DNA of 64,000 nt from Candidatus Omnitrophota bacterium (lineage in GTDB: Bacteria; Omnitrophota; Gorgyraeia; Zapsychrales; Zapsychraceae), in assembly GCA_015233195.1 (NCBI GenBank), contig JADFYE010000003.1, forward strand, positions 74,489 to 138,488, read 5' to 3'. A program made the translations under genes and the position numbers. How positions within the stretch are numbered: position 1 is the stretch's first letter; every line of letters begins with the position of its first letter. A model generated the notes under the pieces. The model worked only from the letters and a program-made list of their open reading frames with translations. It was not told where the DNA came from and made no database searches. Below are positions 25,253 to 56,554 of the stretch, in pieces.

Positions 25253-25941
25253 ATTGTTTTGTTTATTATAATTTTTTTTGCCTCTGATCCACAATTAAAT
25301 ATTATATCAAGAGCTGATAAATGGGATATAAATTTTTCAGTCTTCTCCCATTGCTGCGGGTATATGGGATGTTGATACTTTTGTACTTCAACTCGGATAT
25401 TGTTTTCTGCAAAAAGCGCAAAATCCATATATGCGGCACAACCTTCTCCCGCTATATAAGTATCAGCTTCGACTTTTTTGCATATATCAATCAAACGCTG
25501 AGTTTGGTTAGTGGCAATATTGTAAGCAGACGCTAGTACAATTTTTGTCTTGATATCTAATATGTTTAAAAATGATTCGATAATAGTACAGTTTAAATTG
25601 GATAATTTTTCCCATTCTTGGTCATAGATTTTTTTAAATTGGTCGAAGTATTGGTTAAAGTATGGAGCATTACGGTAATTCATTTCTAATGCTTTTATAT
25701 GATCAATCCGCCAGTTTTCATTATTATTAATTTGTACTTGATTGATCGGTTGACCAAAATCATGCAGTATTGGAACGGTAAGCCATTGCCAGCCTTGTGA
25801 GGTCTTAATGCGGTTACGGTTTTGCCATTCATTTTTTTTAAACTGCGCGTCGTCTAAAAAAACAAAAATATCCGCACGGCTGATCTTGTCAAGATAGCCG
25901 AGCCAGGGTAAATATTGAGGCTGATGTATCGCCACTCTCAT
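25249..25941 (-). CDS. WbqC-like family protein
   Basis: 230 aa. The N-terminus MRVAIHQPQYLPWLGYLDKISRADIFVFLDDAQFKKNEWQNRNRI is the characteristic WbqC-family N-terminus. Confidence 0.8.
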   Translation of the reverse strand: MRVAIHQPQYLPWLGYLDKISRADIFVFLDDAQFKKNEWQNRNRIKTSQGWQWLTVPILHDFGQPINQVQINNNENWRIDHIKALEMNYRNAPYFNQYFDQFKKIYDQEWEKLSNLNCTIIESFLNILDIKTKIVLASAYNIATNQTQRLIDICKKVEADTYIAGEGCAAYMDFALFAENNIRVEVQKYQHPIYPQQWEKTEKFISHLSALDIIFNCGSEAKKIIINKTI

Positions 25942-33669: not shown

Positions 33670-35601
33670 TCACCTTATTTTTTGCGTAACTGTATATCTA
33701 TACCATATGATAACTGATAGAACTCTCCACAAAAGTACTGGATCATATTGCAAAAGTTTTTCATAATTGTTCCAGTATTTTAAAGATGGATCAAGCCGGG
33801 TAATATCTTCCAGCAGCGGTTTAAATACATTGCGGTATTTTAGAAAATAATTTTTGTATGGGAATTTAAAGCCCATTTTGTCTCTGCGCCAGGTTATTTC
33901 TTTAGGTAGATATTTTTCCATTGATTTACGGATAATATATTTGGTCCAACCGTTTTTAAAAAGATAGGTTATAGGCAGTCGTAATCCAAATTCAATAATC
34001 CGATAATCAAGCAGCGGGAATCTATGCTCGATTGGAATGCCCATAGTAAAATGGTCGCTGCTGCGCATATAAAACGGTAATAAAGCAGTTTGAAAATGAT
34101 ATAAAGTTCGTTGATGGAAATTGAGCTTTGGGTATTCTAAACTAAGTTGTTTTGCTTTGGTATCATTTGACAGTTGGAATTCTTTGTCTGTTTTATTTTT
34201 GATATTTAATGGGTTCAACAAAATGTTAAGATAGTTTTTAAATGTAGCAGTGGTATTTTTAATATTACGATATCTACGGCAAAATTCATGCCAATCCGCG
34301 TGAAAGCGTTGTTTGCTGTTACCATTATTTAATTCACGGTATGCTGCAGACCAAAAACTGCTCTCATATCCAGCAAATACTTCATCACCTCCAGCTCCAG
34401 TTATGACTACGTCAGTATGCTGATGTTTCATTTGATTAAGCATCTGGTAATGGGTATACGCGTTTGGATTATCGAATGGTTCTTCCATTAATTGGTTGAA
34501 CATGGGGTAATCATATGAAAATTGATTTTCTATGCCTTGAATCACATTAAAATCTAGGTCATATTTTTTAGTCATTTTACGGGCTAAAGGCTCTTCATTT
34601 GCGTCAGATATTTTGGCAGTAAAAGTTTTTATCTTTTTTTTAGAAATTAGGGCTGCGGCAGCTACGATCGATGAACTGTCTAATCCTCCGCTAAGTTCGA
34701 ACGCTATTGGAACGTCAGAACGCATGCGTATTTCTACAGCATTGAATAATAATTCTTGAAAAATTTTTACTGCGCGGTCCGTATCAATATCTTTTTCTTT
34801 CCATCTGTTTTGCGGTAGATACCAATAATGTTGGATTTGACTTGGTTGAAGTTGATGTTCATTGGGACGGATTACAACCATGGATGCTGGAGGAATGCTG
34901 TGAATTTGGCTGTAAAAAGTTGAACAATTATGGTCTTTAATTCCAGTTTGAATAAATCCTATAATTGTATCATCATTCAAATCAAGATCATTAGGGGATA
35001 TATCGATTAAGGATTCTAAATAACTGGAGAAGTAAAGTCCTTGGGGTGTGTTGCGGTAATATAGCGGTGCTACTCCTATTCGATCTCTGCAAAGCAGTAT
35101 CTCGTTGGTGCGTTTATCGTATAAAGCGATTGCCCAAAAACCATTAGCTTTGTTCCAAAATTCATGTCCCCATATTCTGTATCCCTCAACCATAACTTCA
35201 GTATCAGATCTGGTACGGAACACAACACCAGCTTGTTGCAGTTTCTCTTTCAATTCCAAATAATTGTAGATCTCGCCGTGAAATATCGCGATTATATTTT
35301 GATCTGCCGATATAAATGGTTGATGAGCTTTTTCAGATAGATCAATGATGGAATAACGAGTGTGAATAAAAGCAACGTCATGCATTATCGCGTTTTTTTT
35401 GGTTATTAATGGTAAATATCGGGGTAATTCCGGTGAACTTTTTACGGTAGAATAAGGATAGTTAGTAGTATTAAAACGATTTATTAGATGTATACCTTCG
35501 TCATCCGGACCACGTTTACGGATCGGAAAAAGAAGTTTTTCCAATATTTCTTCATTTAAATTTTGAGGTTGCTTTAATATATATCCTGCTATGCCACACA
35601 T
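33670..35601 (-). CDS. Asparagine synthase (glutamine-hydrolysing)-like amidotransferase, EPS-locus type
   Basis: 643 aa. MCGIAGY provides the Ntn Cys2. ELSGGLDSS is the PP-loop SGGxDS motif. Confidence 0.85.
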   Translation of the reverse strand: MCGIAGYILKQPQNLNEEILEKLLFPIRKRGPDDEGIHLINRFNTTNYPYSTVKSSPELPRYLPLITKKNAIMHDVAFIHTRYSIIDLSEKAHQPFISADQNIIAIFHGEIYNYLELKEKLQQAGVVFRTRSDTEVMVEGYRIWGHEFWNKANGFWAIALYDKRTNEILLCRDRIGVAPLYYRNTPQGLYFSSYLESLIDISPNDLDLNDDTIIGFIQTGIKDHNCSTFYSQIHSIPPASMVVIRPNEHQLQPSQIQHYWYLPQNRWKEKDIDTDRAVKIFQELLFNAVEIRMRSDVPIAFELSGGLDSSSIVAAAALISKKKIKTFTAKISDANEEPLARKMTKKYDLDFNVIQGIENQFSYDYPMFNQLMEEPFDNPNAYTHYQMLNQMKHQHTDVVITGAGGDEVFAGYESSFWSAAYRELNNGNSKQRFHADWHEFCRRYRNIKNTTATFKNYLNILLNPLNIKNKTDKEFQLSNDTKAKQLSLEYPKLNFHQRTLYHFQTALLPFYMRSSDHFTMGIPIEHRFPLLDYRIIEFGLRLPITYLFKNGWTKYIIRKSMEKYLPKEITWRRDKMGFKFPYKNYFLKYRNVFKPLLEDITRLDPSLKYWNNYEKLLQYDPVLLWRVLSVIIWYRYTVTQKIR

Positions 35602-35602
35602 A

Positions 35603-37078
35603 TTAGTGGGTTCTTCCTTTTAATAATATTGCTAGATGTGGATTTTTAATTTTTAATTTCAAAGGATTTGGTGGATGTGGTCTTGCTGGCGTGTTGGATT
35701 CGTTTGTGTTCTGTATAGGTTGCAAATCCGGATCTACGTATGGAATTGACATGACTATAGCGGCTAATAACCAATAGGGCTCCATAATACGGATTATTAT
35801 AAAAGTATTAGCGGTTATCGCATGAACTAATAGCCCAATGTTTCCTGCTATAAATCCTAACGCAATACCTTTTAATAAGTTATTTTTAGTCATACGATAA
35901 TATTTAAAACTTAGGCGGATTATATGGTATATAAGCAGCAAAAATGCAGTGAGTCCAAGTAAGCCTAGTTCGCCTAAAATTCTAAAATATTGACCATCGA
36001 GGAAACCGATTGAAGTTACTCCATGTCCCCAAAAAGGTTTTTCTTTCCATTTTTCAATAACAATTTTCCAACTGCGGATACGTTCTGAAGCTGACCCTCC
36101 TAACTTTATGTCTCCAATTGTTTCTGCCTGGGTCCATCGGTCTGGAGTAAAAGCATCTGTAATACGGCTTTTGATATTTTGTGGGAAAAAAAACATTGAG
36201 ACTATAATTAGTAATATAAGAATTCCTAAAAGAAAATTTCTGGCTTTACTTTTTATGAGCCAAATGAACGAAAGATACATTGGTATTATTGCAGAATATG
36301 AAGCTCTAGATAAAGTATATGTGAAAGGTATTAAAGAAAATATCGTTAAACCCAGGAGAATATATTTATAGTTTAGAAAATTTTTATATATGATTAAACC
36401 TATAGTTAAAGCGATTATTAACACCTGATAACCCCCTAAAGTATTAGGCTCTCCGCGAAGTCCTTCGAATGGAGCTGAAACTCGTATGCCATGCCCGATT
36501 TGTACAGCAGCGCAGATGTTAACTATAAAGAAAGTTAACAATATTGCAAAAATGTAAAATTTAATTTGTTTGATGGTTTTTATGTGGGCTAGGGCTATAA
36601 AAAATACAAAGAAATATTCGAGATATTTGAGTATATAAAAAGTTCCGTTCATCCACTTTAATTGTCCGCCGATTACTCCTTTCATTGTAGAAAAAATGAA
36701 TACGGCAGAATAAAAAAGTATAAATATATTTAATGGACATTTTGGTATAACGCGGGTAGATGGCTGCAATACTAATTTTAGAAACCACCCCATTATGAAC
36801 GATATGATCAAAAGATCATCAAGTCGTATCATTATAGGTCGGGCTGCTTTGGGATCGCCTATGATATATTCCGGAGATAATAACATTGCTGCGATAAGTA
36901 AAAATATGGCGATATCAGGACGTAGGACTACTAATAAAAATCCGCATATTACCGCAAAAATTATAATTGTGATAGTGGGTGTTGAGATTGCAATAGAATA
37001 ACTTACCAGCATACTAATCAATATGACCAGCAAGGCTGATATTACGATCGAAGTCTGACGGTTGTCATTCAACGGCAT
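35603..37078 (-). CDS. O-antigen ligase/polymerase-like (Wzy_C-type) polytopic membrane protein
   Basis: 491 aa with about 10 or more hydrophobic helices. A central loop with TLSRASYSAII fits the Wzy_C/O-antigen-ligase family. Confidence 0.7.
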   Translation of the reverse strand: MPLNDNRQTSIVISALLVILISMLVSYSIAISTPTITIIIFAVICGFLLVVLRPDIAIFLLIAAMLLSPEYIIGDPKAARPIMIRLDDLLIISFIMGWFLKLVLQPSTRVIPKCPLNIFILFYSAVFIFSTMKGVIGGQLKWMNGTFYILKYLEYFFVFFIALAHIKTIKQIKFYIFAILLTFFIVNICAAVQIGHGIRVSAPFEGLRGEPNTLGGYQVLIIALTIGLIIYKNFLNYKYILLGLTIFSLIPFTYTLSRASYSAIIPMYLSFIWLIKSKARNFLLGILILLIIVSMFFFPQNIKSRITDAFTPDRWTQAETIGDIKLGGSASERIRSWKIVIEKWKEKPFWGHGVTSIGFLDGQYFRILGELGLLGLTAFLLLIYHIIRLSFKYYRMTKNNLLKGIALGFIAGNIGLLVHAITANTFIIIRIMEPYWLLAAIVMSIPYVDPDLQPIQNTNESNTPARPHPPNPLKLKIKNPHLAILLKGRTH

Positions 37079-37089
37079 AGTATGTGTAT

Positions 37090-39333
37090 TTAGAGGTTGA
37101 AAGTTTGACCGGTATTTTTATTTGGCTCAGGTTTATTACCGGTTTCACTGTAATAACGGTAATAATAAGCAGAATATCCGACTTGGGCTTCAGTTTTCAT
37201 ATTGTTAAGAATTACGCCTAGCAGGTTGGCTCCGGCATTTAATAAATTGGTCTTTGCCATATTAAGGACATCTTTACTGGTATGACCGACTTTATATACT
37301 AACATAACAGCGTCGACACGGTCGGCTAATGTAACCGCGTCTGGAACTGCCATAACTGGCGAACAATCAACGATGATTATTTCATAATAGTTTTTTAATT
37401 CGTTAAGCAGTTTGTCATATTGAGGTGAAGTTAATATTTCAGAAACATTATCTACAGCACGTCCGCTGGTTAATATATTTAAATTATTCAAACCAGGCAT
37501 ACGGAGCAGATCATCAACATTCACTCCACCAACTAAAATATCAGTAGCAGTATTTACAGCCTCTTTCCAAGTAATGTTACCAATCAGGACATCAGTTAGT
37601 CCAGGTGAGCGGTGTAACCCGAAAGTTTTATATATTGTAGGACGGCGTAAGTTATTACCTAAAAGCAGAGTTTTTTTGCCTAATTGGGCTAATGATAAGG
37701 CAAGGTTCATCACTAGAGTGGATTTACCCTCTTGTTTGTCTGAACTGGTAAATAAAAAGGTTTTATATCCATGGATTTTATTATATTGGATGATTTTTGT
37801 GCGGAGCATTTTTATGGTTTCTGCTGGCCAAGATTTAGGCGAGGTTATAGCTACTAATCGCGCTTGTTGTAATAGTATTTTTTGTTCTTTCTCATTTAAA
37901 TGTAGCCCCAGTTCTTTATCTGACCAGATTTCTTCTTTTTTAATATGTGGGATAATTCCTAGAATATTCAGGTTCAGAACTTTCTCGATGTCGCTTATGG
38001 ATGAGATTGATGAATCAAGACTCTCTCCGATAAAAGCAAAGAATAGTCCTAACAAAAATCCCAAAGCTATACCCATAAGGTAATTCATGCGTATATTGGG
38101 TCTAAATGGTATCTTTGGCACATCAGCTGGGGAAACTACGGTTACTACATCATCGATAACTTTGGCTTGTTCGAGTTTGGCGTCGGACTGTTTATTTAGA
38201 AGTTCATCGTATGAGGTGACTAAGCGATCGACATTTCGTTTTAATCTTACATATTCTAATTGATTTGAAGATAAAGAACCGCTATCCCCATAGAACCGGT
38301 TTACTATCCGGTAGAGAACTTCTCTCTGGGTATCTAAAAATAATTTTTTTAGAGATAAAGATAATTGGGCTTCTTGTTCCGGGGTTATTTTGACATTTGA
38401 AAAATTTTTGATCATATCGACTATTTTTTGTTTCACGCCTGAAATTATTTTATCTTTGGCTATAACTTCAGGATGTTTTTCAGTGTAATCGATTAATAGT
38501 AAAAACCGGTCAAATTCCAGCTCAAGCAATCGACGTTTTAAACCAACAAAAATATAATTTTCAGATAGAGCTTTATCGATAGTAGTCTCAAATAATGTGG
38601 CATTTTGTGATTTTAGTTGGTCATCAATCTTTTTAAGATTGGTTTCAATTTCTAACATTTGGGTTTCAAATTCAAATGTGCCTTGGATAGTCATACGGTC
38701 AAGTACTTCTTTAATTTTGGGTGTTACTTCAAAAACTTTTTCATTTTGACTAAATTTTTGCAGTTTGACTTCTTCTTTTTCCAGTTCATCTTTGTATTTA
38801 TCAAGCTGCATATTTATGTAGGATAATACTGATTCAGATTGTTTTTTACGTCCAGATACGTTTTCTACGATGTAAACATCAGCGATGGCTTTTGCCATTA
38901 AAGCGGCTTTTTGCGGGTCATTAGATTCAGTGGTGATTCGGACAATATTGGTGTTAGGGATTTGCTCAATGATTAAATTTTTTTGGTATTGCATTGATAA
39001 TGCATGCAATGCAGTATCGCGCTCTTCAGACTCAGGAGGGAGTACCTCTATTTTTTCTGCTACTTTTCGTAGGATCGGAAGACTTTTTAACATCAATATC
39101 TCAGTTGCTAAATTTTGAGAATCTTCTTGTTTTATAACTCCGCCTTGACCTGCGATTAATCCGACCTGTGGACGTTCGATACGCAGCTCTAAGCTAGCTT
39201 GATAAATTGGTTTTTGTAATTTAGTGAATACAATTACGGACAAGAATACAATTATAAAAACCCGGACTATTGTCCATTTCTGTTTTCTAATTATGCGCCA
39301 GTATTCTGATAAAGTTACTTCATATTCCTGCAT
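37090..39333 (-). CDS. Polysaccharide co-polymerase / BY-tyrosine autokinase (Wzc/GumC-like)
   Basis: 747 aa. It has an N-terminal Wzz-type TM plus coiled-coil periplasmic region, a second TM, a C-terminal P-loop (SSDKQEGKSTLVMNLA) and a Tyr-rich tail (GYSAYYYRYYSE). Confidence 0.85.
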   Translation of the reverse strand: MQEYEVTLSEYWRIIRKQKWTIVRVFIIVFLSVIVFTKLQKPIYQASLELRIERPQVGLIAGQGGVIKQEDSQNLATEILMLKSLPILRKVAEKIEVLPPESEERDTALHALSMQYQKNLIIEQIPNTNIVRITTESNDPQKAALMAKAIADVYIVENVSGRKKQSESVLSYINMQLDKYKDELEKEEVKLQKFSQNEKVFEVTPKIKEVLDRMTIQGTFEFETQMLEIETNLKKIDDQLKSQNATLFETTIDKALSENYIFVGLKRRLLELEFDRFLLLIDYTEKHPEVIAKDKIISGVKQKIVDMIKNFSNVKITPEQEAQLSLSLKKLFLDTQREVLYRIVNRFYGDSGSLSSNQLEYVRLKRNVDRLVTSYDELLNKQSDAKLEQAKVIDDVVTVVSPADVPKIPFRPNIRMNYLMGIALGFLLGLFFAFIGESLDSSISSISDIEKVLNLNILGIIPHIKKEEIWSDKELGLHLNEKEQKILLQQARLVAITSPKSWPAETIKMLRTKIIQYNKIHGYKTFLFTSSDKQEGKSTLVMNLALSLAQLGKKTLLLGNNLRRPTIYKTFGLHRSPGLTDVLIGNITWKEAVNTATDILVGGVNVDDLLRMPGLNNLNILTSGRAVDNVSEILTSPQYDKLLNELKNYYEIIIVDCSPVMAVPDAVTLADRVDAVMLVYKVGHTSKDVLNMAKTNLLNAGANLLGVILNNMKTEAQVGYSAYYYRYYSETGNKPEPNKNTGQTFNL

Positions 39334-39379: not shown

Positions 39380-40183
39380 CTATGGTGCGTCTTTAAGTAC
39401 ATTTCCGCCACCCAAAGTGTAGTAATCCAGTACGTATTTTAATACGGCATCTTTAAATATATTAAAGTTATGTATAAATGAAGTTGGAACATGGATAAGA
39501 TCCCCTGGTTTTAAAACTATATTATCGGTGCGATCTCCGCGTTTTATCATTTTGTGAATATCTAAGCGCATGATAGTTGGTTTAGTGTTTTGACCGCGGA
39601 TAACAATAACACTGTTTAGATTTGCTCTTGATCGGTCGTAATGTCCGTCTAATAATGCTTCCATTAGTGTAAGACCAGGCTTTATTTTATACATTCCTGG
39701 AGCACCCACAGCTCCGATAAGCATGTATTTCCCTTCGGCATTTATATCTAATTCTAATTCCGGGTTACGAATATATTCTTGTAACATGCTGTTAAGCATT
39801 TCCCGGGCTTGTTTGCGGTTTAAATCAGTAATTTTGGTTGATCCTAAAAGCGGCATGAATATTTCTCCCTTTTCGGATACGCGGTAGATCGCTTTTTCTT
39901 TTTTGCTTCGATCGTTGTAAGATATTCGTAGTTCATCGCCAGGTACTATTTTATTAGTAGTGTCTTCATTTTCAGTTATTACCTTGAGTTGCCCAATTAC
40001 TGAATCTTTTTCTTGTCCATAATCAGTTTTATCGTCGATAGGCGGTGGTGATTGAGTTTCGTTTAATATTGCTCGTTGGTGTTCAAGAGTATAGAAATCA
40101 AATCCTCCCCCTTGCTGACCGTAAGAATTCGCGCAAAATAATAGTGAAAGTATGATAACAAAGTTTTGTAGTTTATTTTTCAT
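39380..40183 (-). CDS. Polysaccharide export protein (Wza-like; Poly_export + SLBB)
   Basis: 267 aa with a signal peptide. IVPGDELRISYND...GEIFMPLLGSTKITDLNRKQAREML and the later PGDLIHVP block are typical. Confidence 0.8.
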   Translation of the reverse strand: MKNKLQNFVIILSLLFCANSYGQQGGGFDFYTLEHQRAILNETQSPPPIDDKTDYGQEKDSVIGQLKVITENEDTTNKIVPGDELRISYNDRSKKEKAIYRVSEKGEIFMPLLGSTKITDLNRKQAREMLNSMLQEYIRNPELELDINAEGKYMLIGAVGAPGMYKIKPGLTLMEALLDGHYDRSRANLNSVIVIRGQNTKPTIMRLDIHKMIKRGDRTDNIVLKPGDLIHVPTSFIHNFNIFKDAVLKYVLDYYTLGGGNVLKDAP

Positions 40184-41168
40184 TCAAAAAAATACCTTTT
40201 AAATTTGCTAATTGAACCACTTGTTCTTTTTTGGTTTGGTTTAAAGCTTCAGTTACATAAATTAAGGTTTCTTCACGGAAACTTACTATTTTATGCATAG
40301 GATCAACTTTATTATTCGGTAATAGTAATATTCGTATAATGCAATGAGTTGGTGAAGGTGGATCATTCGCGATAACTAGCGCGGTTTGTCCGGTGTTTAA
40401 AAGTAAAAAACTTCCGATCGGATATATAGATGTATATTCAATAAATTTTTTTAATAAACGTTCATCAAACATCAGGTTCTTTTTATTTATGATCATTTTA
40501 ATGGCTTCATAAGGTGAAAAGCTCGCACGAAAGTTCCGGGCGTGGGTAAGTGACGCGAAAACATCACAGATTGAAACTATTTTTGCAAAGATGGATATTT
40601 CTAACGCGCTTTTTTTAAGAGGATAGCCTCTACCATCTACAGTTTCATGGATCTCCATAATCGCGTTCATTATTTTTTCACTAAACACGTTTTGGAATTT
40701 ATCTACAGATTTAAGCGGATGTTTTTGTACTAAGTTGCGTTCATCTTTGCTTAATTGGTTTGGCGCTTGAACTATATTTGAATATTCCATCATGCCAAAG
40801 TCGTGGCAGAAAGCTACTAATCCAAGATCAAGCAAATCCTCATCGGATAAGCGCAAATAATTGCCAAAAGCTATTGAAAATATTACGTTATTAGCGATAT
40901 GTATAGGGATGTAGTTGTCTTCAGTTATCGCGTAAGTGTAAAGTAAAAGGTCATTATATGCAGAATTTTTAAATTCATTAATTATGATTTTAAGCGAGTT
41001 TTTTATATTTTCTGGTTCGATGGTATTGAAAGTGGTTTTAACAGTATTCAACAAAGTTAAAAAGACTTGTTTAAGTCGGGGGTTTGCGTGTGGACAGGTT
41101 AATGCCTCTAGCTTAAAAGGAAGCTTGCTGGGATATTCATTTAACGGTTCACGATTGTCGGTTTGCAT
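40173..41168 (-). CDS. HD-GYP domain protein (predicted c-di-GMP phosphodiesterase; some ligand positions are divergent)
   Basis: 331 aa. The motifs are CHDFGM (HD), KHPLKS, IHETVDGRGYP (an HHExxDGxGYP-like motif), ICDVFASLTHAR and the C-terminal YPIGSFLLLNTGQTALV. Confidence 0.75.
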   Translation of the reverse strand: MQTDNREPLNEYPSKLPFKLEALTCPHANPRLKQVFLTLLNTVKTTFNTIEPENIKNSLKIIINEFKNSAYNDLLLYTYAITEDNYIPIHIANNVIFSIAFGNYLRLSDEDLLDLGLVAFCHDFGMMEYSNIVQAPNQLSKDERNLVQKHPLKSVDKFQNVFSEKIMNAIMEIHETVDGRGYPLKKSALEISIFAKIVSICDVFASLTHARNFRASFSPYEAIKMIINKKNLMFDERLLKKFIEYTSIYPIGSFLLLNTGQTALVIANDPPSPTHCIIRILLLPNNKVDPMHKIVSFREETLIYVTEALNQTKKEQVVQLANLKGIFLNEK

Positions 41169-41170
41169 AG

Positions 41171-41992
41171 TTATGTTCGGGACTCTTCAAGTTGAGAATC
41201 ACGGATAACTTTTTTCATTATCTCGTCATTAAGTGGTATTTTTACTTTTTGAATGAACCCTTCTAAAAGCGCCATATCACATATACCATTTATAACTCGC
41301 GGAATGCCTTTTGAATACTGATAAATGATTTTTTTAGCATTTTCGCTGAATAAGGATTTTTTTGAACCGGCTATTGCTAACCGATGTTCAATATAACTGT
41401 TAGTATCATTTTCATCCAATGGGTCTAAGTGATATTCAATCAATAGACGCTGTCTAAGCTGTGGAAGTTGTTTTAATCTCCTCCTGAGTTCAGTTTGACC
41501 TATCAGTATTAGCGAAAGCAGGAACCGGTCATTTTGTTGGTAATTTAATAATAAGCGCAATTCTTCAAAAGTGCCAAGATCTTCTATGGATTGAGCTTCA
41601 TCAATAACTATCAGAGTCTCTTTATTCATATTAAGATTTGATATTAATATATCATTAAAAATTCGTAAAAGCTCACCTTTTGTTTTATTTGGATGGAGCT
41701 CGTTGCTTAATTGGTATATTATTTCGCTTAATAATTCATTGGAATTTAATCGGGGATTTGTTATCAAAGCAATTTCATATTTTGATCCGGTTAATTCGTT
41801 TAAAAATACCCGACTTATAACTGTTTTTCCACATCCGTACAAGCCGGTTAGTAACATTGCTCCTTTATTATCTATTACAGTATAAAAAAGACGCAGTAAT
41901 GCTTCTTCATGTGCTTTAGAATAATACACATATCTAGGGTCGGGTGTAAGATCAAAAGGTTTTTCAGTAAGATGAAAATATTCAGTGTACAT
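41171..41992 (-). CDS. ExeA/GspA-like AAA ATPase (AAA_22-type)
   Basis: 273 aa. YFHLTEKPFDLTPDPRYVYYSKAHEEALLRL...LLTGLYGCGKT (Walker A) and LIVIDEAQ (Walker B) are present. Confidence 0.8.
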   Translation of the reverse strand: MYTEYFHLTEKPFDLTPDPRYVYYSKAHEEALLRLFYTVIDNKGAMLLTGLYGCGKTVISRVFLNELTGSKYEIALITNPRLNSNELLSEIIYQLSNELHPNKTKGELLRIFNDILISNLNMNKETLIVIDEAQSIEDLGTFEELRLLLNYQQNDRFLLSLILIGQTELRRRLKQLPQLRQRLLIEYHLDPLDENDTNSYIEHRLAIAGSKKSLFSENAKKIIYQYSKGIPRVINGICDMALLEGFIQKVKIPLNDEIMKKVIRDSQLEESRT

Positions 41993-41994
41993 GG

Positions 41995-42894
41995 TTATTT
42001 TTGTGCTCTTAGTTCCTGGATAATCTTTTTTAAGGTAGTAGATTTGATGCCTTTTACGTCAAGGGTTAGGTCAGGTTCTTTTTGTTTAATTTGTATAATA
42101 GGTTTTTCCTGAATTTCTGGCTCAATCGGTATAGTTGGTTTTATATTTGGAATTATTTGATTAGTTGGGGAATTATCATGTAGGGTTGTTTTAAAATAAA
42201 ATGTATCATCGTTAATATTAGAAGGTGTGAAAGGCGCAGTTTCCTCATTCCCGACTGAATGGTTTAATTTAACAATGCCTGATTCGATAGCGTCAGATAT
42301 AATTTTTTTGAATATCTTCAGTACATATTTAAAACACATGAACGAAAAAACAGTAGCTAGTCCGATTACAAAAATAATGAAAATCACATTTGATAATGAA
42401 AACAGGTTTTTAAGCATTACCTTGGAACGATCTAATTCTGACTCCACCGCTACGATCCAATCAAGTTTTTTAATATAGTCATAGCGAATAGCTTTTTGTT
42501 TTGAGAAAAAATCAAGTCCGTTATGCTCAGGGTAAAAAATTATACCTTGTTTGTTTTGTTGCATTTGGTATAGAATTTTCGAGCGGTAACTCTCCCATAA
42601 AACCTCATCATTGATATTTTTTAGCTTACGTTTAAAAATAAATTCTTCAGATTCGGGTTTTATTGCGAATACATTTAGTTGTTCTGGATATTGATCATGA
42701 TCAATATTTTCAGTTTGAGTGACTAACAGAATTACCTGTTCAGTTTCTTTGGAAAAATTATTGAGCCAATCAGTAAGGTTATCGCCGGCTCTTTGGATGA
42801 TTAACATCCCGGATATAAAAGCTATGGCACATCCCCAGATAAGTATTTGCGAAATAAATAAGGTATTTATTATGCTGCGCAAACTTTTTTTCAT
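41995..42894 (-). CDS. Two-TM membrane protein with an extracytoplasmic loop of about 150 aa (possibly sensor/Cache-like) and a Pro/Ile-rich cytoplasmic tail. Function unknown.
   Basis: The start was trimmed from TTG 42921 to ATG 42894 (MKKSLRSIINTLFISQILIWGCAIAFISGML). The second TM is NVIFIIFVIGLATVFSFMCF. I recognised no catalytic motif. Confidence 0.6.
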   Translation of the reverse strand: MKKSLRSIINTLFISQILIWGCAIAFISGMLIIQRAGDNLTDWLNNFSKETEQVILLVTQTENIDHDQYPEQLNVFAIKPESEEFIFKRKLKNINDEVLWESYRSKILYQMQQNKQGIIFYPEHNGLDFFSKQKAIRYDYIKKLDWIVAVESELDRSKVMLKNLFSLSNVIFIIFVIGLATVFSFMCFKYVLKIFKKIISDAIESGIVKLNHSVGNEETAPFTPSNINDDTFYFKTTLHDNSPTNQIIPNIKPTIPIEPEIQEKPIIQIKQKEPDLTLDVKGIKSTTLKKIIQELRAQK

Positions 42895-42898: not shown

Positions 42899-44071
42899 TT
42901 AAGATCTTTTCCGTCCGACAAGCATTAATATTGTAATCATGATAAACGTTAGTACTGAATGGACTAAATTACTTGATACCGTAAAAATATTTTTGGAGCT
43001 ATCAAGTTCCAACGCGTTTAGTCCTAAAATTATGCATACCAGATAAATAAAGCCTACAGCATGACGTTCAGCAAAGTTCATGTTCATAAGCCGATGATGG
43101 AAATGGTCGCGACCGCGGTAATCTAGCCATTCACGGAACGAATGCACTTTGCCGTTAATTATCCGGCTGGCAGTTATGTATATCATATCAAAAATCAGCA
43201 CACCTAAAATTATTACTGGTATGCTTAAGGCAATAACTGGACCTTTATTTGACCATCCTCCAAAAATTGCTATAGCGGCTAAAATGAAACCTAATAAAGT
43301 ACTTCCTCCGTCGCCAAGATATATTTTAGCTGGATAAAAATTGTAACAAAGGAATCCTAAGGCTGTTCCCATGGTTATGGCGGATAAAAATGCGATTTCA
43401 GGTTGGTTTTGATGCAAGGCTATTAAAAAGAAAAATAATGCAGATATGGCAGTCATTCCAGTTGCTAGGCCATCCGCTCCGTCTGCAAAATTCATGGTGT
43501 TAATAATGCCAATTATCCAAATTAATGATAAACATATGCTTAGCAGGTGACCGATTAGCGTTGTACCTGGGAAAGATAAAAGTATGCCGGTAGACATTAT
43601 AATTACTGCTGCACCGATTTGACCGAATATTCTGAATACTGAGCTTAATGGACGTAAGTCATCGATTGTACCCATTATATAAATTATCGTACAGGCTACT
43701 ATAATGCTATAGAATTGGTGAGAAAAAGTAATTTTATGTCGGAGTTGGTATAATATTAATGTTGCAATCAGACCAATAATTATTGCGCTCCCTCCTAAAA
43801 GTGGAATATTCTTTTTTTCGGTAGGAGTACTTGGTTTGGTGTTACGGTCTCGGATATTTAATTTTTTTGCGATTAAAATTATAATTGGTGTTGAGAGAAT
43901 AACAATACAAAACGCGACTATCGCCCAAAGCAAGTTGTGCAAAAGATTAGCTTTTAAGTGCTGGTAATATGTATTTATATATTGACTGATACCTATCCCA
44001 CATAAAACCAAAACTATTAATCCGATAAATTTCGAAAATGTTTTAGAATATGTTTGTGATAGTTTGGTCAT
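42899..44071 (-). CDS. Polyprenyl-phosphate HexNAc-1-phosphate transferase (WecA/MraY family), the initiating transferase
   Basis: 390 aa and polytopic. The motifs are IMGTIDDL, NFADGADGLA and the NFYPAKIYLGDGGS pattern of the Glycos_transf_4 family. Confidence 0.85.
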   Translation of the reverse strand: MTKLSQTYSKTFSKFIGLIVLVLCGIGISQYINTYYQHLKANLLHNLLWAIVAFCIVILSTPIIILIAKKLNIRDRNTKPSTPTEKKNIPLLGGSAIIIGLIATLILYQLRHKITFSHQFYSIIVACTIIYIMGTIDDLRPLSSVFRIFGQIGAAVIIMSTGILLSFPGTTLIGHLLSICLSLIWIIGIINTMNFADGADGLATGMTAISALFFFLIALHQNQPEIAFLSAITMGTALGFLCYNFYPAKIYLGDGGSTLLGFILAAIAIFGGWSNKGPVIALSIPVIILGVLIFDMIYITASRIINGKVHSFREWLDYRGRDHFHHRLMNMNFAERHAVGFIYLVCIILGLNALELDSSKNIFTVSSNLVHSVLTFIMITILMLVGRKRS

Positions 44072-44081: not shown

Positions 44082-47000
44082 CTATTTAATATTATTTAAA
44101 AGATCTATTGCGCTGTCTAACTCTTGTTTAATTTTTTCATCATGGTTATTATTTTGAGTAATTGGTTTTTCAATTACTTTGGTATCGACCTTTTGTTGAC
44201 GAACTTGGTCGAGCTGATCAGTCAGCGCATATAATGCTTTTTGTAATTGACCACGTTCTTTTTGGATCTGCATTATCTCGCTGTTTAGTAAAGTGTTTTT
44301 TTCTTCTATTTGTTTAAGCGCGGTTTGTTTTTCATCGATGATCGTATTATTGGCATTTATGGTATTTTCTAATTCTTTTATTTTTGTTTGTAATGGTTTC
44401 TTGGTTTCTTCAATACGAGTTTTATTAATTTGGTCTAGTTCGTTTATTTTATTTTGAAGATTTCGAATTTTTTCTTCCATGGTAGTCATGTTTTGAATTT
44501 GTGATTGCAGTTGTTGTATTGAATTTTCTTTTTCTTCAAGTTGGCTTTTTACGTTTTGAATTAATTTTGAATTTTTATCTGCTTCGTCTGTCTTGGTTGA
44601 TTTTAGTTGTTCAAGTTGGGCTTCTAAAGGTTTTTTAGCTTCAGTAATTTTATCCTGCCATTTTTTTTCTGAATCATTGAATTGTTGCATTAATTTTCCC
44701 AAAGCCTCTTGAATAGTACGTTTTTCATTCTTTAAATCATTTAATTGATTAATAAGACTGGCATTTTCAGATAAATTTTTTGATAATTGTTGTTCTTTAT
44801 TTTTAACTTCAGTTTGATTTGTGGTTATTTGTTTGGTGAAATCATTATTCATTGATGATATTTCATCTTTTAAAGCTTTAACTTGTTTTTCCAGATCAGA
44901 ACGTGCGGTTATGATTTCTTGTGCCTGTTGAGATTTAATATTTTTTAGTTTGGTTTCAAGCGTGTCATAGGCGGCTTTTAATTCATCAGCTTTCTTTTGG
45001 GCTAAATTCAACTCTGCATTGCGGATATCCCGTTCGCTTTGCATATCTTGCAATTCAAACTTTTTTTCATCCATTTGCTTTGTAAGCGTAACTATTTGTT
45101 TATCTTGATCAACAATTTTATTATTTGCTTCTTGACGGGCTTGATCTATTGCTTGAGTTTTATTGGTGTTTAGAATTGCGAGTTGAGTTTTTAGCTCATC
45201 TATATTTTTTTGTAGGGCAGAAGTCGAATTGTTTAATTGCTGATTTTGTTGCTTAAGATCTTCTAAAGTTGTTTGAAGCTGTTGTTTTTTAACTTTTATA
45301 TCTTCTAATTCTGTATTTTTTAACTGCGAGTTGTTTTGTTCGGAAGTTAGTGTTTTTTTCATTGTAACTAACTGTTGTTCAAGACCTAAACGATCTTGCT
45401 GCATAGTCTCAATTTGTTTGTTAAGCGTTTGTTCCGCAGCTAATTGAGTTTTGATATCATTATCTTTCGTGATTAATTGGTTATTTAAATCAGCAATTTT
45501 TTGATTTATCAATGATATCTCTTGTGTTTTTGCCAGATTATTTTGTTTTAGTTGTTCATCAAATTCAATTTTTTGTTGTAGGAGTTTGTCATCAAAGGTT
45601 TTTAACTTTGATAATAGCGGTTGTTTAGCTTCTTCTAATTTGGCTTGATAAGTGTTTTTAATTTTTGATGATTCGATATTTATGGTTTCAATTTGAGTTT
45701 GTAATTTAAGTTTTTCATTGTTAAGTTGTTCAACATTTTTGGTTGTTGTTTCAAGTTGGCGTTGTATTGATTTTAATTTTTCTTCTAATGATTGTGCGCG
45801 GGCAGACTCATTTTTTATTTTGTTATTCGAAACAGTATTCGTTTCTACTAATTCTTTCTGTAACTTATAAAGTTCAGTCTGAACTGTGGTCTTTGAGGAT
45901 TGTTCTTTTGATAATAAATTTTCTAAATTATTTTTTTGGTGAGATAAATCGTTTATGCTTTCTTGGGTTAATTTTAATTGTGTTTCAAAGCTGTTAATTT
46001 TTGCTTGCATTGATTTAGAGTCTGCGTCTGAGTTTTGTTTAGTTGTATTTAATTCTGTAAGTTTACTTTCGTATTCAGATTTAGTTTTATTTAGTAAGTC
46101 ATTTAATTTCGCGACTTCTGATTTGTTGTTCTCTTGTAATTGAGCAAGTTGCTTTTGTAGTTGGTCTTTAACTGATTGCTCATTGTTCAGAGCTGTCTCA
46201 GTATTGGTTTTTTGTTTTGATAGTTCATTCAGAGCTTGTTGGGTTGTTTTTAGTTCGTTCTCGTATTGTTTGATTTTTGTGTTAAGTACTTCTTTCTCTC
46301 CTAATAATGCTTTTGCATTTTCAGATTGAGACAAAGTGGATTGTTTTGCAGATTCAAGGTTTTTGTTTAATTCAGTCAGTTTATTCTCGTAGTCAGATTT
46401 AGTTTTATTTAGTAAATCAGTTAATTTAGCGACTTCTGATTTGTTGTTCTCTTGTAATGGGGCGAGTTGTTTTAGTAAAGGCGCTTTGGCGGTTTCGATT
46501 AATTCAGGAGTTTTCTTTTGCAGGTCTTCAATGTTCTTAGTTGAGGTTAGTTTGGTTGTTTCTAGCCTATCGTTTAATTCGTTTAGTTTATTTTCGTAGT
46601 CAGATTTAGTTTTATTTAGTAAATCAGTTAATTTAGCGACTTCTGATTTGTTGTTCTCTTGTAATTGGGTGATTTGTTTAAGTAAAGGCGCTTTGGCTGT
46701 ATCGACCTGTGCTGGGATTTGTTTTTGTAGATCTTCGATTTGCTTTTGAACCTGAACCAGTTGTTTTTGTAATTGTTCTTTAGTTAATATTTCGTTGTTT
46801 AAAGCAGTTTCAGTTGAGTTTTTTTGCTTTGATAGTTCACTAATAGTTTGTTGAGTGGATTTTAGTTCTGTTTCGTATTGTTTAATTTTTATGTTTAGAG
46901 TTTCTTTTTCATTCGCTAATGATTTACTATTTTGAGCTTGCAGCTCAGCTAGTTTGTTTTCGTAGTCAGATTTAGTTTTATCGAACTTTTGTTGGTATTC

Positions 47001-49145
47001 TTTAATTAAAGTATCTAATTGTTTATTGGTTGCGGTTAATTGAAATTTTTGCTGGGTTAAGTTTTTCAGTTCTGTGGTTTTTTGGTCAATATTAACTTTG
47101 GCTGTTGAGTATTGCTGAGAAAGTTCTTTAATTTGATTTAATAACGGTGTCTTAGCAGTTTCGATTAAAGTAGGAGTTTGTTTTTTTAGCTCGTCTATTG
47201 TTGTTTTTGCTGAAGTTAATTCACCATGTTGATTATTTAGTGAGGCATTTAATTGTTTGATATTTTTGGATAATTCGGCTTTAGTATTATTTAAAGCAAT
47301 TATCTCTTTAGCTTTTGTGGAATCCGCACTTTTAATCGAGTTTAATTGGTTAGTTAATTCGTCAAGTTGTTTCAATAAAGGTGCTTTAGTATTTTCAATT
47401 GCAATCGGAAATTCATTTTGTAATTTATTGTTTTGATCCTGTGCAGAGGTTAATTTTTGTTGATGTTCTTTAATTAAATTTTCTAATTGTCCAATTTTTT
47501 CAGTTAATTGTAATTTCTGATCTGAAATATTTTTTAATTTATTATTTTTGCTGTCGAGTTCAGTAGTTAATGAGGCTATATTTTTTTCAGAACTCTGCGA
47601 CTCTTTATTAAGGGAAATAATTTTATCGTTTAAAGCGTTGTTTTTATCGGAAAAAGTTAAGATTTCTTCAGTTTTTTGTTTTAGCAAAAAATCGCGGTCT
47701 TTTATTCCGTTTTCAAGTTCATTAACTTTTTGGGTCAATAATTTTTGGGCATCGTTGTTTTGTATTTCATTTTTTTTAAGTTGTTCAATCAGAGACAGCT
47801 TATCTGCGTTAATATTTGTTATTTCGCTTTTTTGTACAGCCAATGCTGCTGAAGTTTGTTTAAGTTCGGAATTTGACTTGGATATTTGATCTTGAAGTTG
47901 TTTTAATTGGTCAGCATATGTTTTTTGAATATTTTTTGAGTCTTGTTCGACGCTAGTTAATTTTTCTTGATATTGTTGTTTTAATTGTTGCGCAGCTTGC
48001 GTTGATTCAATTTTGATTTGTTCTATTTGTGATTTATAGTTTTTTAATTGTGAATTTAGTTCTGAAATTTTGTTATTAGAGGAGTTTTCTTTCTCTTGCA
48101 GCTGGTCCTTAATTTTTATTTTATTAGCTGCGAGTTCATTTTTTGTATTGTTAAGTTCTTCATATAATTCTTTTTGCTGATCTTGAATTTTAATCCGTTC
48201 AGTATCCCAGGAGGTTTTTTTTTCGTTTAAAGATCCGAGTTCGTTATCTTTTTTTGAAATATTTTGTTGAAGTTCGTGAATTTGGCGTTCAAGTGTGGAT
48301 ATTTGATTCGTAAGTGCGTCTGAAGTTTCTTTTAATTTTTTATCAGCGGCTTGTTGGACTTGAGTAATTTGAATTTTAAGTTGGTCAGCATTTTTAGCTT
48401 GGGTATTAAGATTATCAATTTGTAGCTGCCGTTCTTTGAAAGCTGCCTCATAACCTTCAATGGTCTTTTTCATGGCAAAAATTTCATTTTGCAAAGGCAG
48501 GCGGACCTCTTCAACACGTTTTAATAATGCTTCTTCATTTGCGGCAGTATTATTTGTCAATTCATTAAGTTTGTTTTTAAGCCTGCTATTTTCTTCTTGT
48601 AATGCAAAAGTTTCAGCACTTGCTTCTTTATATTTTTCGATTTGAATTTTTAATGATGCGATTTCTCCGCTAGTTTGCGTGTTATCTTTAATTTGATTTT
48701 GCAGGTCAACGTTCTTCTTTTCTATTTCGGATAGCTTGGTAGTTAGACCATCTTCTTTTTGCGCGAGAATTTCTTTAAATTTACGGTTATCACGTTTATA
48801 TTGCTCTAATTCGGATGATAAGGTTTGTTTTATATTGTTAAGTTGTTGAAGCTGATCTTGTTGTTGGGTCAGAGTTTGTTTTTTTTGGTTTAACTCAGTT
48901 TCCAGTGTTTGGAGTTTTTTTTGCAATAAGGAATCATCAGTGGTCTTTTTAATTGCGTTTTTTAAACCTTCATTTTCCTCTGCTAATCCCAGATTTTCTT
49001 GACGTAAACTCATAAGTTGGTTCAAAAGCGATTGTTTTTGCAGTAACAGATCCTGTAAATTATTGGTTTGTGCAAAAACCGGAGAATAAAAACTCGCAGA
49101 AACAAAAATGGCAGCTACGAGTATTTTGTTTAGCTTACTGTTCAT
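44082..49145 (-). CDS. Giant secreted coiled-coil protein (1,687 aa)
   Basis: The signal peptide is MNSKLNKILVAAIFVSASFYSPVFA|QTNN. The remainder is almost uninterrupted K/E/Q/L/N-rich heptad-like sequence with internal repeats. The SD GAGAGGAAG lies inside the end of the upstream gene, and the two genes overlap by 11 nt. Confidence 0.85.
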   Translation of the reverse strand: MNSKLNKILVAAIFVSASFYSPVFAQTNNLQDLLLQKQSLLNQLMSLRQENLGLAEENEGLKNAIKKTTDDSLLQKKLQTLETELNQKKQTLTQQQDQLQQLNNIKQTLSSELEQYKRDNRKFKEILAQKEDGLTTKLSEIEKKNVDLQNQIKDNTQTSGEIASLKIQIEKYKEASAETFALQEENSRLKNKLNELTNNTAANEEALLKRVEEVRLPLQNEIFAMKKTIEGYEAAFKERQLQIDNLNTQAKNADQLKIQITQVQQAADKKLKETSDALTNQISTLERQIHELQQNISKKDNELGSLNEKKTSWDTERIKIQDQQKELYEELNNTKNELAANKIKIKDQLQEKENSSNNKISELNSQLKNYKSQIEQIKIESTQAAQQLKQQYQEKLTSVEQDSKNIQKTYADQLKQLQDQISKSNSELKQTSAALAVQKSEITNINADKLSLIEQLKKNEIQNNDAQKLLTQKVNELENGIKDRDFLLKQKTEEILTFSDKNNALNDKIISLNKESQSSEKNIASLTTELDSKNNKLKNISDQKLQLTEKIGQLENLIKEHQQKLTSAQDQNNKLQNEFPIAIENTKAPLLKQLDELTNQLNSIKSADSTKAKEIIALNNTKAELSKNIKQLNASLNNQHGELTSAKTTIDELKKQTPTLIETAKTPLLNQIKELSQQYSTAKVNIDQKTTELKNLTQQKFQLTATNKQLDTLIKEYQQKFDKTKSDYENKLAELQAQNSKSLANEKETLNIKIKQYETELKSTQQTISELSKQKNSTETALNNEILTKEQLQKQLVQVQKQIEDLQKQIPAQVDTAKAPLLKQITQLQENNKSEVAKLTDLLNKTKSDYENKLNELNDRLETTKLTSTKNIEDLQKKTPELIETAKAPLLKQLAPLQENNKSEVAKLTDLLNKTKSDYENKLTELNKNLESAKQSTLSQSENAKALLGEKEVLNTKIKQYENELKTTQQALNELSKQKTNTETALNNEQSVKDQLQKQLAQLQENNKSEVAKLNDLLNKTKSEYESKLTELNTTKQNSDADSKSMQAKINSFETQLKLTQESINDLSHQKNNLENLLSKEQSSKTTVQTELYKLQKELVETNTVSNNKIKNESARAQSLEEKLKSIQRQLETTTKNVEQLNNEKLKLQTQIETINIESSKIKNTYQAKLEEAKQPLLSKLKTFDDKLLQQKIEFDEQLKQNNLAKTQEISLINQKIADLNNQLITKDNDIKTQLAAEQTLNKQIETMQQDRLGLEQQLVTMKKTLTSEQNNSQLKNTELEDIKVKKQQLQTTLEDLKQQNQQLNNSTSALQKNIDELKTQLAILNTNKTQAIDQARQEANNKIVDQDKQIVTLTKQMDEKKFELQDMQSERDIRNAELNLAQKKADELKAAYDTLETKLKNIKSQQAQEIITARSDLEKQVKALKDEISSMNNDFTKQITTNQTEVKNKEQQLSKNLSENASLINQLNDLKNEKRTIQEALGKLMQQFNDSEKKWQDKITEAKKPLEAQLEQLKSTKTDEADKNSKLIQNVKSQLEEKENSIQQLQSQIQNMTTMEEKIRNLQNKINELDQINKTRIEETKKPLQTKIKELENTINANNTIIDEKQTALKQIEEKNTLLNSEIMQIQKERGQLQKALYALTDQLDQVRQQKVDTKVIEKPITQNNNHDEKIKQELDSAIDLLNNIK
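46069..46665 (-). repeat. Intragenic direct repeats inside the coiled-coil gene. There are three copies of a 72-bp core, encoding (Q)ENNKSEVAKL(T/N)DLLNKTKS(D/E)YE.
   Basis: Copies at 46387-46458 and 46594-46665 are identical over 72 bp and lie 207 bp apart. The copy at 46069-46140 differs at a few positions. A 21-bp partial copy lies at 46960-46980. Confidence 0.9.
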
Positions 49146-56541: not shown

Positions 56542-56554
56542 ATTATTAATTTTG

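Follow-up and report, generated by a model that had tools for sequence, protein, structure and literature searches.

An ExeA-like ATPase gene and an active-site-altered HD-GYP partner gene in polysaccharide loci of Omnitrophota and other phyla: a possible nucleotide-responsive switch

In this study, a stretch of 64,000 nucleotides from the metagenome-assembled genome of an uncultured Candidatus Omnitrophota bacterium (assembly GCA_015233195.1, contig JADFYE010000003.1, positions 74,489 to 138,488; hereafter the window) was analyzed, with emphasis on three adjacent genes that encode a membrane protein of 299 aa (41995-42894), an ExeA-like ATPase of 273 aa (41171-41992) and an HD-GYP protein of 331 aa (40173-41168). 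Coordinates are those of the window, and all features of this locus lie on the minus strand; from ~24.2 kb to ~50 kb, every gene is on that strand and belongs to one polysaccharide locus. In the direction of transcription, a gene for a 1687-aa coiled-coil protein is followed by genes for a WecA-like GT4 priming transferase, the membrane protein, the ATPase, the HD-GYP protein and a short outer-membrane polysaccharide export (OPX) protein, and then by genes for a Wzc-like polysaccharide co-polymerase (PCP)/tyrosine kinase, a Wzy-like polymerase, an AsnB-like amidotransferase, seven glycosyltransferases, and WbqC and DegT. The GT4, membrane protein, ATPase and HD-GYP genes are separated by 4, 2 and 2 nt, and the HD-GYP gene shares an 11-nt overlap with the wza-like OPX gene. 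These coordinates and junctions confirmed a preliminary description of the window, which had reported three consecutive genes 2-4 nt apart and an 11-nt overlap with wza. The membrane protein was assigned an ATG start, as in its NCBI record; if extended, the open reading frame (ORF) reaches a TTG at 42921. The membrane protein and the HD-GYP/ATPase proteins were identical to NCBI entries (locus tags HQL25_02180 and HQL25_02190). When promoters and terminators were scanned for, matches were at background level and no minus-strand terminator-like site was found between 39380 and 44071, which fits a single operon for the region. The region is best read as part of one minus-strand operon for a Wzx/Wzy-type (PCP-OPX) polysaccharide pathway.

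Conservation of these genes was examined by scanning one genome per GTDB species with an ATPase profile, which yielded 80 loci whose ATPases were 45-71% identical to that of the window. Going by the titles of their records, these loci represent Omnitrophota, Aminicenantes, Rokubacteria/Methylomirabilota, Acidobacteriota, Marinimicrobia, Latescibacterota, Fidelibacterota, Margulisbacteria, Saganbacteria, Nitrospirota and Elusimicrobiota. A pair census was made on 88 ATPase copies in 82 loci from other genomes (the 80 scan loci plus loci of relatives), in which ORFs were called and searched with the window proteins. An HD-GYP ORF lay directly downstream of the ATPase, on the same strand, in 74 of the 88 copies; two more copies were followed by short HD-like ORFs recognized by profile, and two further loci stop before the position downstream of the ATPase can be read. 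The two genes were also tightly coupled, with the first possible HD-GYP start no more than 10 nt from the ATPase stop, or overlapping it, in 64 of 73 pairs. Moreover, their pairwise identities diverged together (Mantel r = 0.93, a value reached by 0 of 999 permutations), and the ATPase was far more conserved than its partner (mean pairwise identity of 52% vs 32%). No natural ATPase-HD-GYP fusion was present among the homologues listed. One Omnitrophota genome (L032, 7759-13143) carried two ATPase and HD-GYP pairs, on either side of a Wzy gene. Conservation of the membrane protein gene was narrower. The gene order of the window was kept in nine related loci, and members of the membrane protein family were encoded directly upstream of the ATPase in L001, in L004-L011 and in two JGI contigs; the other loci had none. 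Given that the membrane protein is confined to one subgroup of Omnitrophota, the conserved unit is the pair, and not the triad that had first been described.

The genes around the pair were then compared. Among the 73 pairs, the upstream neighbor was Wza in 13, Wzc in 12, GT4 in 11 and the membrane protein in 8, and at least one exopolysaccharide (EPS) marker was found within the sampled locus DNA in 65. The order in the window's subgroup is GT4, membrane protein, pair and Wza; in other Omnitrophota it is Wza, Wzc, pair and Wzy, and in Rokubacteria it is Wza, pair, Wzc and Wzy. In Aminicenantes, the pair is followed by WbqC, PIG-L, DegT and GT4, and in Marinimicrobia, the order is WbqC, DegT, GT4 and pair. 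Because the position of the pair among EPS genes varies across phyla, the Wza channel, which had been put forward as the target, is not singled out; elsewhere the pair stands beside GT4 and amino-sugar genes, between Wza and Wzc, or between Wzc and Wzy. WbqC, DegT, the WecA-like GT4 and the 640-aa AsnB-like amidotransferase were found to accompany the pair in Aminicenantes, Marinimicrobia and the window, the loci concerned being L003, L016-L030, L049, L059, L060, L070 and L078. This common gene set is a hint that loci of this type have their sugar chemistry in common, perhaps with an N-acylated or amidated amino sugar. In an Elusimicrobiota locus (L042, 2770-4404), two tandem ATPase genes without an HD-GYP gene directly precede Wza and Wzc. 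No HD-GYP gene was found beside more distant ExeA-like ATPases, namely in the XrtA locus of Nitratidesulfovibrio vulgaris, at GspA-GspB of Ideonella and on a Roseobacter-type EPS plasmid; the HD-GYP partner thus marks a distinct ATPase subfamily.

The ATPase matched Pfam AAA_22 (E 7.9e-21) and carries a Walker A motif LTGLYGCGKTV (41819-41851), a Walker B motif IVIDEAQ (41591-41617) and a GIPR sensor-2-like motif (41285-41311). In 14 diverse homologues, Walker A, Walker B, a GQ motif and GIPR were invariant. The best family match was NCBIfam TIGR03015, the XrtA/PEP-CTERM system-associated ATPase, over model positions 1-267 of 269 (E 1.5e-70); the score of 237.7 bits did not reach the model cut-off of 324.5. 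Over aa 1-246, the protein was 41% identical (E 6e-61) to aa 25-270 of a 571-aa ORF of Aeromonas caviae; this ORF and the 227-aa ORF that follows it were read as ExeA and ExeB from their sizes, as the record is unannotated. It was also 35% identical to the XrtA ATPase of N. vulgaris. The identity to the N-terminal domain of an ExeA-sized protein makes the term ExeA-type ATPase domain correct, and the preliminary description was right in calling the 273-aa protein an ExeA/GspA-type ATPase with GCGKT, a member of a family related to ExeA. An AlphaFold model (predicted local distance difference test, pLDDT, of 89) had its nearest folds in ORC/Cdc6, MuB and TnsC, AAA+ switches that form assemblies when ATP-bound and are triggered by partners. 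A PDB sequence search with the ATPase gave no match, so that the fold search alone was informative. Public assemblies, when queried for the exact ATPase sequence, returned nothing, although an identical protein is present in NCBI (P0001). Weak Pfam matches to TniB and nSTAND were also seen. The ATPase contains no hydrophobic segment that could span a membrane and has no Pfam match to PG_binding; the soluble protein ends at 273 aa. Taken together, these data place the ATPase in the ExeA/TIGR03015 family, as a soluble AAA+ protein whose catalytic motifs are intact and whose fold is of the ORC/MuB/TnsC-like switch type.

These features bear on the function that had been proposed at first, in which the trio would be an ExeA/ExeB-like module that assembles or activates the Wza-type channel, with the HD-GYP protein bringing it under cyclic di-GMP (c-di-GMP) control. 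ExeA/GspA ATPases work with a membrane partner, ExeB/GspB, in secretin assembly, and ExeA owes its role in this process to two features, a transmembrane segment and a periplasmic peptidoglycan-binding domain. The ATPase domain of the window is truly ExeA-like, sharing the N-terminal MY..F.L.E.PF motif and the Walker motifs of ExeA/GspA, and the trio lies directly before the wza-like gene, overlapping it, in an order that is kept in nine related loci. However, ExeA-sized proteins of Aeromonas and Ideonella (548-571 aa) are roughly twice as long as the window ATPase, which lacks both the transmembrane segment and the peptidoglycan-binding domain. The window has no ExeB-like neighbor and no recognized secretin or type II secretion system gene, and its OPX protein is not a secretin. 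Outside one subgroup, moreover, the membrane protein is absent, and in Aminicenantes and Marinimicrobia the pair adjoins WbqC, DegT and GT4 and has no adjacent Wza. An ExeB-like identity of the membrane protein was tried and ruled out: its comparison with the ExeB-sized ORF of Aeromonas gave an E value of 0.27, and a match to Cache domains was obtained instead (see below). The analogy to ExeAB is not supported on these points, and we consider such a module very unlikely.

The HD-GYP protein matched Pfam HD_5 (E 6.7e-18). It consists of N-terminal helices, an HD-GYP domain (aa ~83-246) and a C-terminal beta domain (aa 248-310, 40239-40427; aa 254-308 in the structural model), the last being an extra domain that is conserved across the clade. 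The IHE...GYP motif (40620-40655), with the sequence EIHETVDGRGYP at aa 172-183, bears out the earlier observation of a stand-alone HD-GYP protein that reads IHETVDGRGYP where HHE is usual. The structural model (pLDDT 82.8) matched Bd1817 (3tm8), DvhD (9rbz), PmGH (4mcw), PA4781 (4r8z) and V-cGAP3. The closest of these in structure was Bd1817 of Bdellovibrio (TM-score 0.54-0.58 over 229 columns, including part of the N-terminal helices), an HD-GYP-family protein that is reported to be inactive. Bd1817 also stands alone, is only 20% identical to the window protein and lacks the GYP tyrosine (PDB title). By sequence, the best PDB match was V-cGAP3, a cyclic GMP-AMP (cGAMP) phosphodiesterase (E 8.5e-15). 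We know of no link between Bd1817 and an ATPase or EPS genes.

Metal ligands were placed by spacing in a phmmer alignment of the window HD-GYP protein to PmGH (4mcw), whose ligands we take to be E185, H189, H221, D222, H250, H276, H277 and D305 in the numbering of Bellini et al. 2014. In this alignment, Y86 corresponds to E185, H90 to H189, H122/D123 to H221/D222, H150 to H250, I173/H174 to H276/H277 and D202 to D305. In PmGH, iron is bound by the HD and double-His motifs (PMC13090378). Scored in this way, the set of ligands is incomplete: I173 replaces the first His of the HH pair and Y86 the Glu of the trinuclear site, and M126 stands where the HDxGK motif has Lys. In these three positions the protein departs from catalytic HD-GYPs (PmGH, PA4781 and RpfG-type REC-HD-GYP proteins), with which it shares the domain and the GYP loop. 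H90, H122, D123, H150, H174, E175, D202 and DGRGYP are kept. All close homologues (P0122-P0128; L001 and L004-L011) have Ile, Val, Met or Thr at the position of I173, and hence the loss of this His is not a sequence error.

The alteration was found to be clade-wide when active-site columns were counted in 74 aligned sequences (73 partners and the window HD-GYP protein). The HDxGK lysine was missing in 74 of 74, Met or Leu being there in its place. In 45 of 74, the HD histidine was kept; Rokubacteria have Ile instead, and a second group of Omnitrophota has Tyr, Cys, Ala or Phe. For the HH pair, the first His was present in 44 of 74; the window's subgroup has Ile, Val or Met at this position, and Marinimicrobia and others have Glu. 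In Aminicenantes, Glu takes the place of the last Asp. H90, H150, H174, E175 and the GYP proline were retained in 67-73 of 74; with L139 and R214 included, the range was 63-73 of 74. The most eroded proteins were those of Rokubacteria/Methylomirabilota (L029 and L043-L083), which read ID...HHE...GFP and have lost the RxY motif; in the same loci, the upstream Wza-like protein is ~550 aa long, about twice the usual length, and Wzc is ~1050 aa long, although ORF lengths may be over-called in such high-GC DNA. As a control, the window's own REC-HD-GYP protein (50119-51180) was fully canonical at the same positions, and twelve unlinked HD-GYPs had the HD motif in 12 of 12, the HH pair in 11 of 12 and the HDxGK lysine in most. 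That the ligands lost differ between lineages while the scaffold is conserved suggests that the partner clade is not under selection for full dinuclear catalysis; this pattern does not by itself prove inactivity. The gene for the REC-HD-GYP response regulator adjoins surE, ~9 kb upstream of the altered HD-GYP gene, and the HDIGK, HHE, GYP and RPYK motifs of its product are intact; this protein could be the system's actual phosphodiesterase. In 8 other loci, too, REC-HD-GYP-like ORFs were present no more than 10 kb from the pair.

The main alternative to a sensory role is that the HD-GYP protein is an active phosphodiesterase, possibly mononuclear or otherwise metallated, which would reduce the local level of c-di-GMP or another cyclic dinucleotide. 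The ATPase would then be an independent EPS assembly factor, as in XrtA loci, that is only co-regulated. The window protein indeed has H90, H122, D123, H150, H174, E175, D202 and GYP, its best sequence match in the PDB is a cGAMP phosphodiesterase, and some EPS loci hold an ExeA-like ATPase without any HD-GYP gene. Against this stands a pattern of ligand loss that varies by lineage, in which the HD His or the first His of HH has in places given way to Ile, Val, Met, Ala or Phe, residues that do not bind metal. The HDxGK lysine is lost throughout, while unlinked HD-GYPs are mostly canonical, and adjacency across phyla with start/stop overlap exceeds what is usual for co-regulated genes. We regard an active enzyme beside an independent ATPase as unlikely.

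A precedent for a sensory HD-GYP protein is DvhD of Desulfovibrio vulgaris (PDB 9rbz/9rc0), a metal-free HD-GYP that was shown in 2026 to act as a c-di-GMP receptor (PMC13090378). DvhD and the window protein have the same fold (Foldseek E 1.2e-6). Both depart from the canonical set of metal ligands, the window protein only in part, and most positions that contact c-di-GMP in DvhD have counterparts in the window protein. In the window protein, L139, Y182, L207, R211 and F213 are as in the DvhD contacts, and R144 is a conservative replacement for Lys; the equivalent of DvhD Lys582 is variable in the clade. Across the 74 sequences, the contact equivalents were conserved to different degrees: L139 and the GYP Tyr/Phe in 69 each, Leu or Met at 207 in 65, R211 in 52 and an aromatic residue at 213 in 50. 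DvhD differs in being a transmembrane receptor of the LapD type, built of periplasmic, PAS and SQ-GYP domains, by which a protease is regulated. The window protein is soluble, retains the HD motif together with one of the two His of HH, carries a C-terminal beta domain and has an AAA+ protein as its partner in EPS loci. The early suggestion that the HD-GYP protein is a sensor rather than an enzyme agrees with its place in a clade of altered metal sites, and DvhD provides a precedent (PMC13090378); the metal site of the window protein itself is only partly lost.

It is also conceivable that the HD-GYP fold serves as a structural or regulatory subunit of the ATPase that needs no ligand, such as an activator of hydrolysis or an adaptor comparable to TnsB/TniQ with TnsC or to MuA with MuB, without the involvement of any second messenger. 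In favor of this, the partner has changed much more rapidly than the ATPase, the residues for nucleotide contact are eroded in Rokubacteria, and the fold class of the ATPase, to which MuB and TnsC belong, generally uses hydrolysis that is triggered by a partner. The conservation of H90, H150, H174, E175, L139, the GYP proline and R214 (63-73 of 74) is nevertheless hard to explain unless a ligand or metal is bound. In light of these residues, a ligand-independent subunit appears quite unlikely.

Next, the membrane protein was considered. Its hydrophobic segments lie at aa ~12-36 (TM1; 42787-42861) and ~163-190 (TM2; 42325-42408). The two transmembrane segments and the Pro/Ile-rich tail that had been noted before were found again, but the loop between the segments measures ~125 aa and not ~150 aa. 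This loop holds a periplasmic Cache-like domain (aa 37-160; 42415-42786), recognized by a profile-profile match and by the conserved motif LWxxYxxKLIYxMQKQKxGWIxYP...IRY..I..LGWIVAVE. After TM2 comes a variable Pro/Ile-rich linker (42073-42324), which cannot be aligned among family members, and then a conserved cytoplasmic helix (DLTLDVKGIKSTTLKKIIQELRAQK) at the C-terminus (41998-42072), a candidate docking peptide. The Pro/Ile-rich stretch at aa ~245-274 thus belongs to the variable linker, and it is the C-terminal helix that is the conserved feature. In 25 family members, the last 25 residues were strongly conserved in the pattern I-K-S-x-x-L-K-K-I-I-x-E-x-R, with S285, L288 and R296 invariant and I283 and K290 nearly so. 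The same layout of TM1, Cache-like domain, TM2, low-complexity linker and conserved tail was seen in orthologues, with the Cache-like domain duplicated or extended in L010 and L011.

The relationship to Cache domains was not evident from standard searches, as no Pfam or NCBIfam domain matched the membrane protein and a word-indexed homologue search returned only the protein itself. By exhaustive phmmer search of 1.84 billion proteins, 70 cluster representatives were retrieved, and the weakest of these matches were long sensor kinases and a methyl-accepting chemotaxis protein (MCP), which aligned over their dCache_2/sCache_2 module and the next transmembrane segment. When a profile of the 25 family members was compared with the membrane-proximal module of dCache_2/sCache_2 kinases, hhalign gave 96.8% (E 2.9e-10). 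On this profile evidence, the membrane protein is a two-TM sensor of the Cache type, with an extracytoplasmic Cache domain between two transmembrane segments. No cytoplasmic transmitter (HAMP, kinase, MCP or GGDEF) was recognized in it by Pfam or NCBIfam, and a scan of all ORFs of 83 loci found the motif of the C-terminal helix absent outside the membrane protein family. The C-terminal helix plausibly recruits the ATPase/HD-GYP pair to the membrane.

The remaining genes of the locus are those of a polysaccharide pathway. The GT4 priming transferase (42899-44071), a WecA/MraY-like polyprenyl-phosphate sugar-phosphate transferase upstream of the trio, matched Pfam Glycos_transf_4 (E 8e-36) and, at 88 bits, the NCBIfam model ECA_wecA, which is under the cut-off of that model. 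The short OPX protein (267 aa; 39380-40183) has Poly_export and SLBB_2 matches, in a layout of a PES domain and one SLBB; its best NCBIfam match is pepcterm_export (TIGR03027), followed by EpsY-type models, all under cut-off. No outer-membrane beta-barrel partner for this short OPX protein was recognized in the 64-kb window. The PCP-2a/Wzc-like co-polymerase (37090-39333), with Wzz, GNVR and the tyrosine-kinase domain AAA_31, matched TIGR01007 at 144 bits, which exceeds the model cut-off. It is followed by the Wzy/O-antigen-ligase-like polymerase (35603-37078; Wzy_C E 5.5e-9) and the 640-aa AsnB-like amidotransferase (33670-35601), and the locus ends with WbqC and DegT (24215-25941). For the OPX, PCP/tyrosine kinase, amidotransferase and Wzy-type genes, pepcterm models were among the best or near-best NCBIfam matches. 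The XrtA/PEP-CTERM system of N. vulgaris (pDEVAL01) is one of the closest known systems: its TIGR03015 ATPase is homologous to that of the window over the full model length, and both loci have a short OPX, a PCP, a tyrosine kinase, an AsnB-like amidotransferase and a Wzy-like ligase. Unlike the window ATPase of 273 aa, however, the XrtA ATPase has 439 aa with a C-terminal extension, and the canonical XrtA locus has no HD-GYP gene beside the ATPase. The 64-kb window has no recognized exosortase, TIGR03016 outer-membrane protein, deacetylase, FemAB gene or PEP-CTERM proteins, and domain scans of it recognized no GGDEF, PilZ, type II secretion system or secretin gene.

Directly upstream of the GT4 gene, the 1687-aa coiled-coil protein (44082-49145) has a hydrophobic N-terminal segment, possibly a signal peptide, and three near-identical repeats of ~32 aa (LQENNKSEVAKLTDLLNKTKSDYENKL); the same position is taken by a 2900-aa ORF in relatives, and a homologue is present in L009. 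Proteins with coiled coils only were found further upstream (284 aa, 49135-49989; 501 aa, 55078-56583), and an ORF of more than 2457 aa on the minus strand (56627-64000) continues past the edge of the window. Downstream of the EPS locus, positions 355-24132 hold ordinary central metabolism: citrate synthase, fumarase, two aconitase-family proteins, chorismate synthase, leucyl aminopeptidase and an NfeD/SPFH pair. No mobile-element genes were found in this part of the window. An anti-phage defense or mobile-element module, in which a TniB-like ATPase and an HD nuclease-like protein had come into the EPS locus by chance, would agree with the weak TniB and nSTAND matches of the ATPase and with weak PADLOC P-loop matches (~19-20 bits). 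Such a module is hardly credible, because PADLOC gives no family for the HD-GYP or membrane protein, 65 of 73 pairs are embedded among EPS genes across phyla, the neighborhood is free of transposase and integrase genes, and base composition is uniform across the region.

The gene anatomy, the families, the conservation and coupling of the pair and the active-site substitutions can be stated with high confidence. Most likely, the pair acts as a regulator rather than as a channel-assembly factor. On balance, and at about even confidence, we propose that the pair would be a cytoplasmic nucleotide-responsive switch on Wzy-dependent polysaccharide assembly or export, to which a lineage-specific Cache input has been added. 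The HD-GYP subunit would sense c-di-GMP, which is the simplest ligand, or a related nucleotide, perhaps with slow turnover or none, and would in this way set the ATP-dependent on or off state of the ATPase. The ATPase, in turn, would license or tune the inner-membrane machinery (priming transferase, Wzy and Wzc), and hence export; control would be post-translational. In the lineage of the window, the upstream Cache two-TM sensor would add an extracytoplasmic input and, through its C-terminal helix, a membrane anchor. We hold this signaling mechanism tentatively, at rather less than even confidence; a physical ATPase-HD-GYP complex, the identity of the ligand, the target and the direction of control are all points that we infer. 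In its most far-reaching form, the proposal is that of an unrecognized receptor-effector pair, widespread in phyla that are mostly uncultured, in which a catalytically impaired HD-GYP protein reads c-di-GMP or another cyclic dinucleotide and gates an ORC/TnsC-like switch ATPase that licenses Wzy-dependent assembly, with wiring to a Cache sensor by way of the C-terminal helix in Omnitrophota; this form we consider possible but doubtful.

Several observations weigh against a nucleotide-responsive switch. Six ATPase copies of the same clade are truly without an HD-GYP partner, and when the genes downstream of partnerless ATPases were scanned for a replacement c-di-GMP domain, GH3, esterase or unknown proteins were found, none of them relevant. 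The co-divergence of the two proteins is also what would be expected of any neighbors that are inherited vertically. In the window HD-GYP protein, the H...HD...D site is intact and, of the three other ligands of the second metal, two (H150 and H174) are there; judging from these residues, the protein may have residual phosphodiesterase activity; elsewhere in the clade, the substitutions of His by Glu, Cys or Tyr and of Asp by Glu could still bind metal. With regard to the ligand, the equivalent of Glu668, which reads guanine in DvhD, is Lys in the HD-GYP partner, so that the ligand may not be c-di-GMP, and Rokubacteria have lost R211 and the aromatic residue at 213. The window was also without a recognized gene for a diguanylate cyclase or a PilZ protein. 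Finally, no mechanism assigned to TIGR03015 or other ExeA-like ATPases of EPS loci was found in the literature.

Part of what is described here is already known, namely the ExeA-like ATPase in EPS loci (through the TIGR03015 annotation), the control of polysaccharide secretion by c-di-GMP and HD-GYPs of the receptor type. The earlier remark that this wiring was uncharacterized therefore holds for the pairing, as no description of an HD-GYP protein paired with an ExeA/GspA/AAA_22/MshM or PEP-CTERM ATPase was found in a body of about 8 million papers, but not for the ATPase, which had been named. The PEP-CTERM paper of Haft 2006 does not discuss the ATPase. As far as we can tell, an ATPase subfamily with a dedicated, active-site-altered HD-GYP partner in at least seven phyla is new, and the Cache-sensor add-on in Omnitrophota appears to be new as well.

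ExeA-like ATPases are annotated in many EPS loci, including XrtA/PEP-CTERM and Roseobacter plasmid loci, and the HD-GYP-partnered subfamily leads to the testable idea that such an ATPase is under the control of a nucleotide second messenger. If this is true, the small set of receptor-type (non-enzyme) HD-GYP domains would be extended, and the receptor-effector pair would be the first functional handle on the TIGR03015/ExeA-like ATPases of EPS loci. The pair is carried by lineages that for the most part have not been cultured (Omnitrophota, Aminicenantes, Rokubacteria, Marinimicrobia and others), and surface polysaccharides probably play a central part in their attachment or host association.

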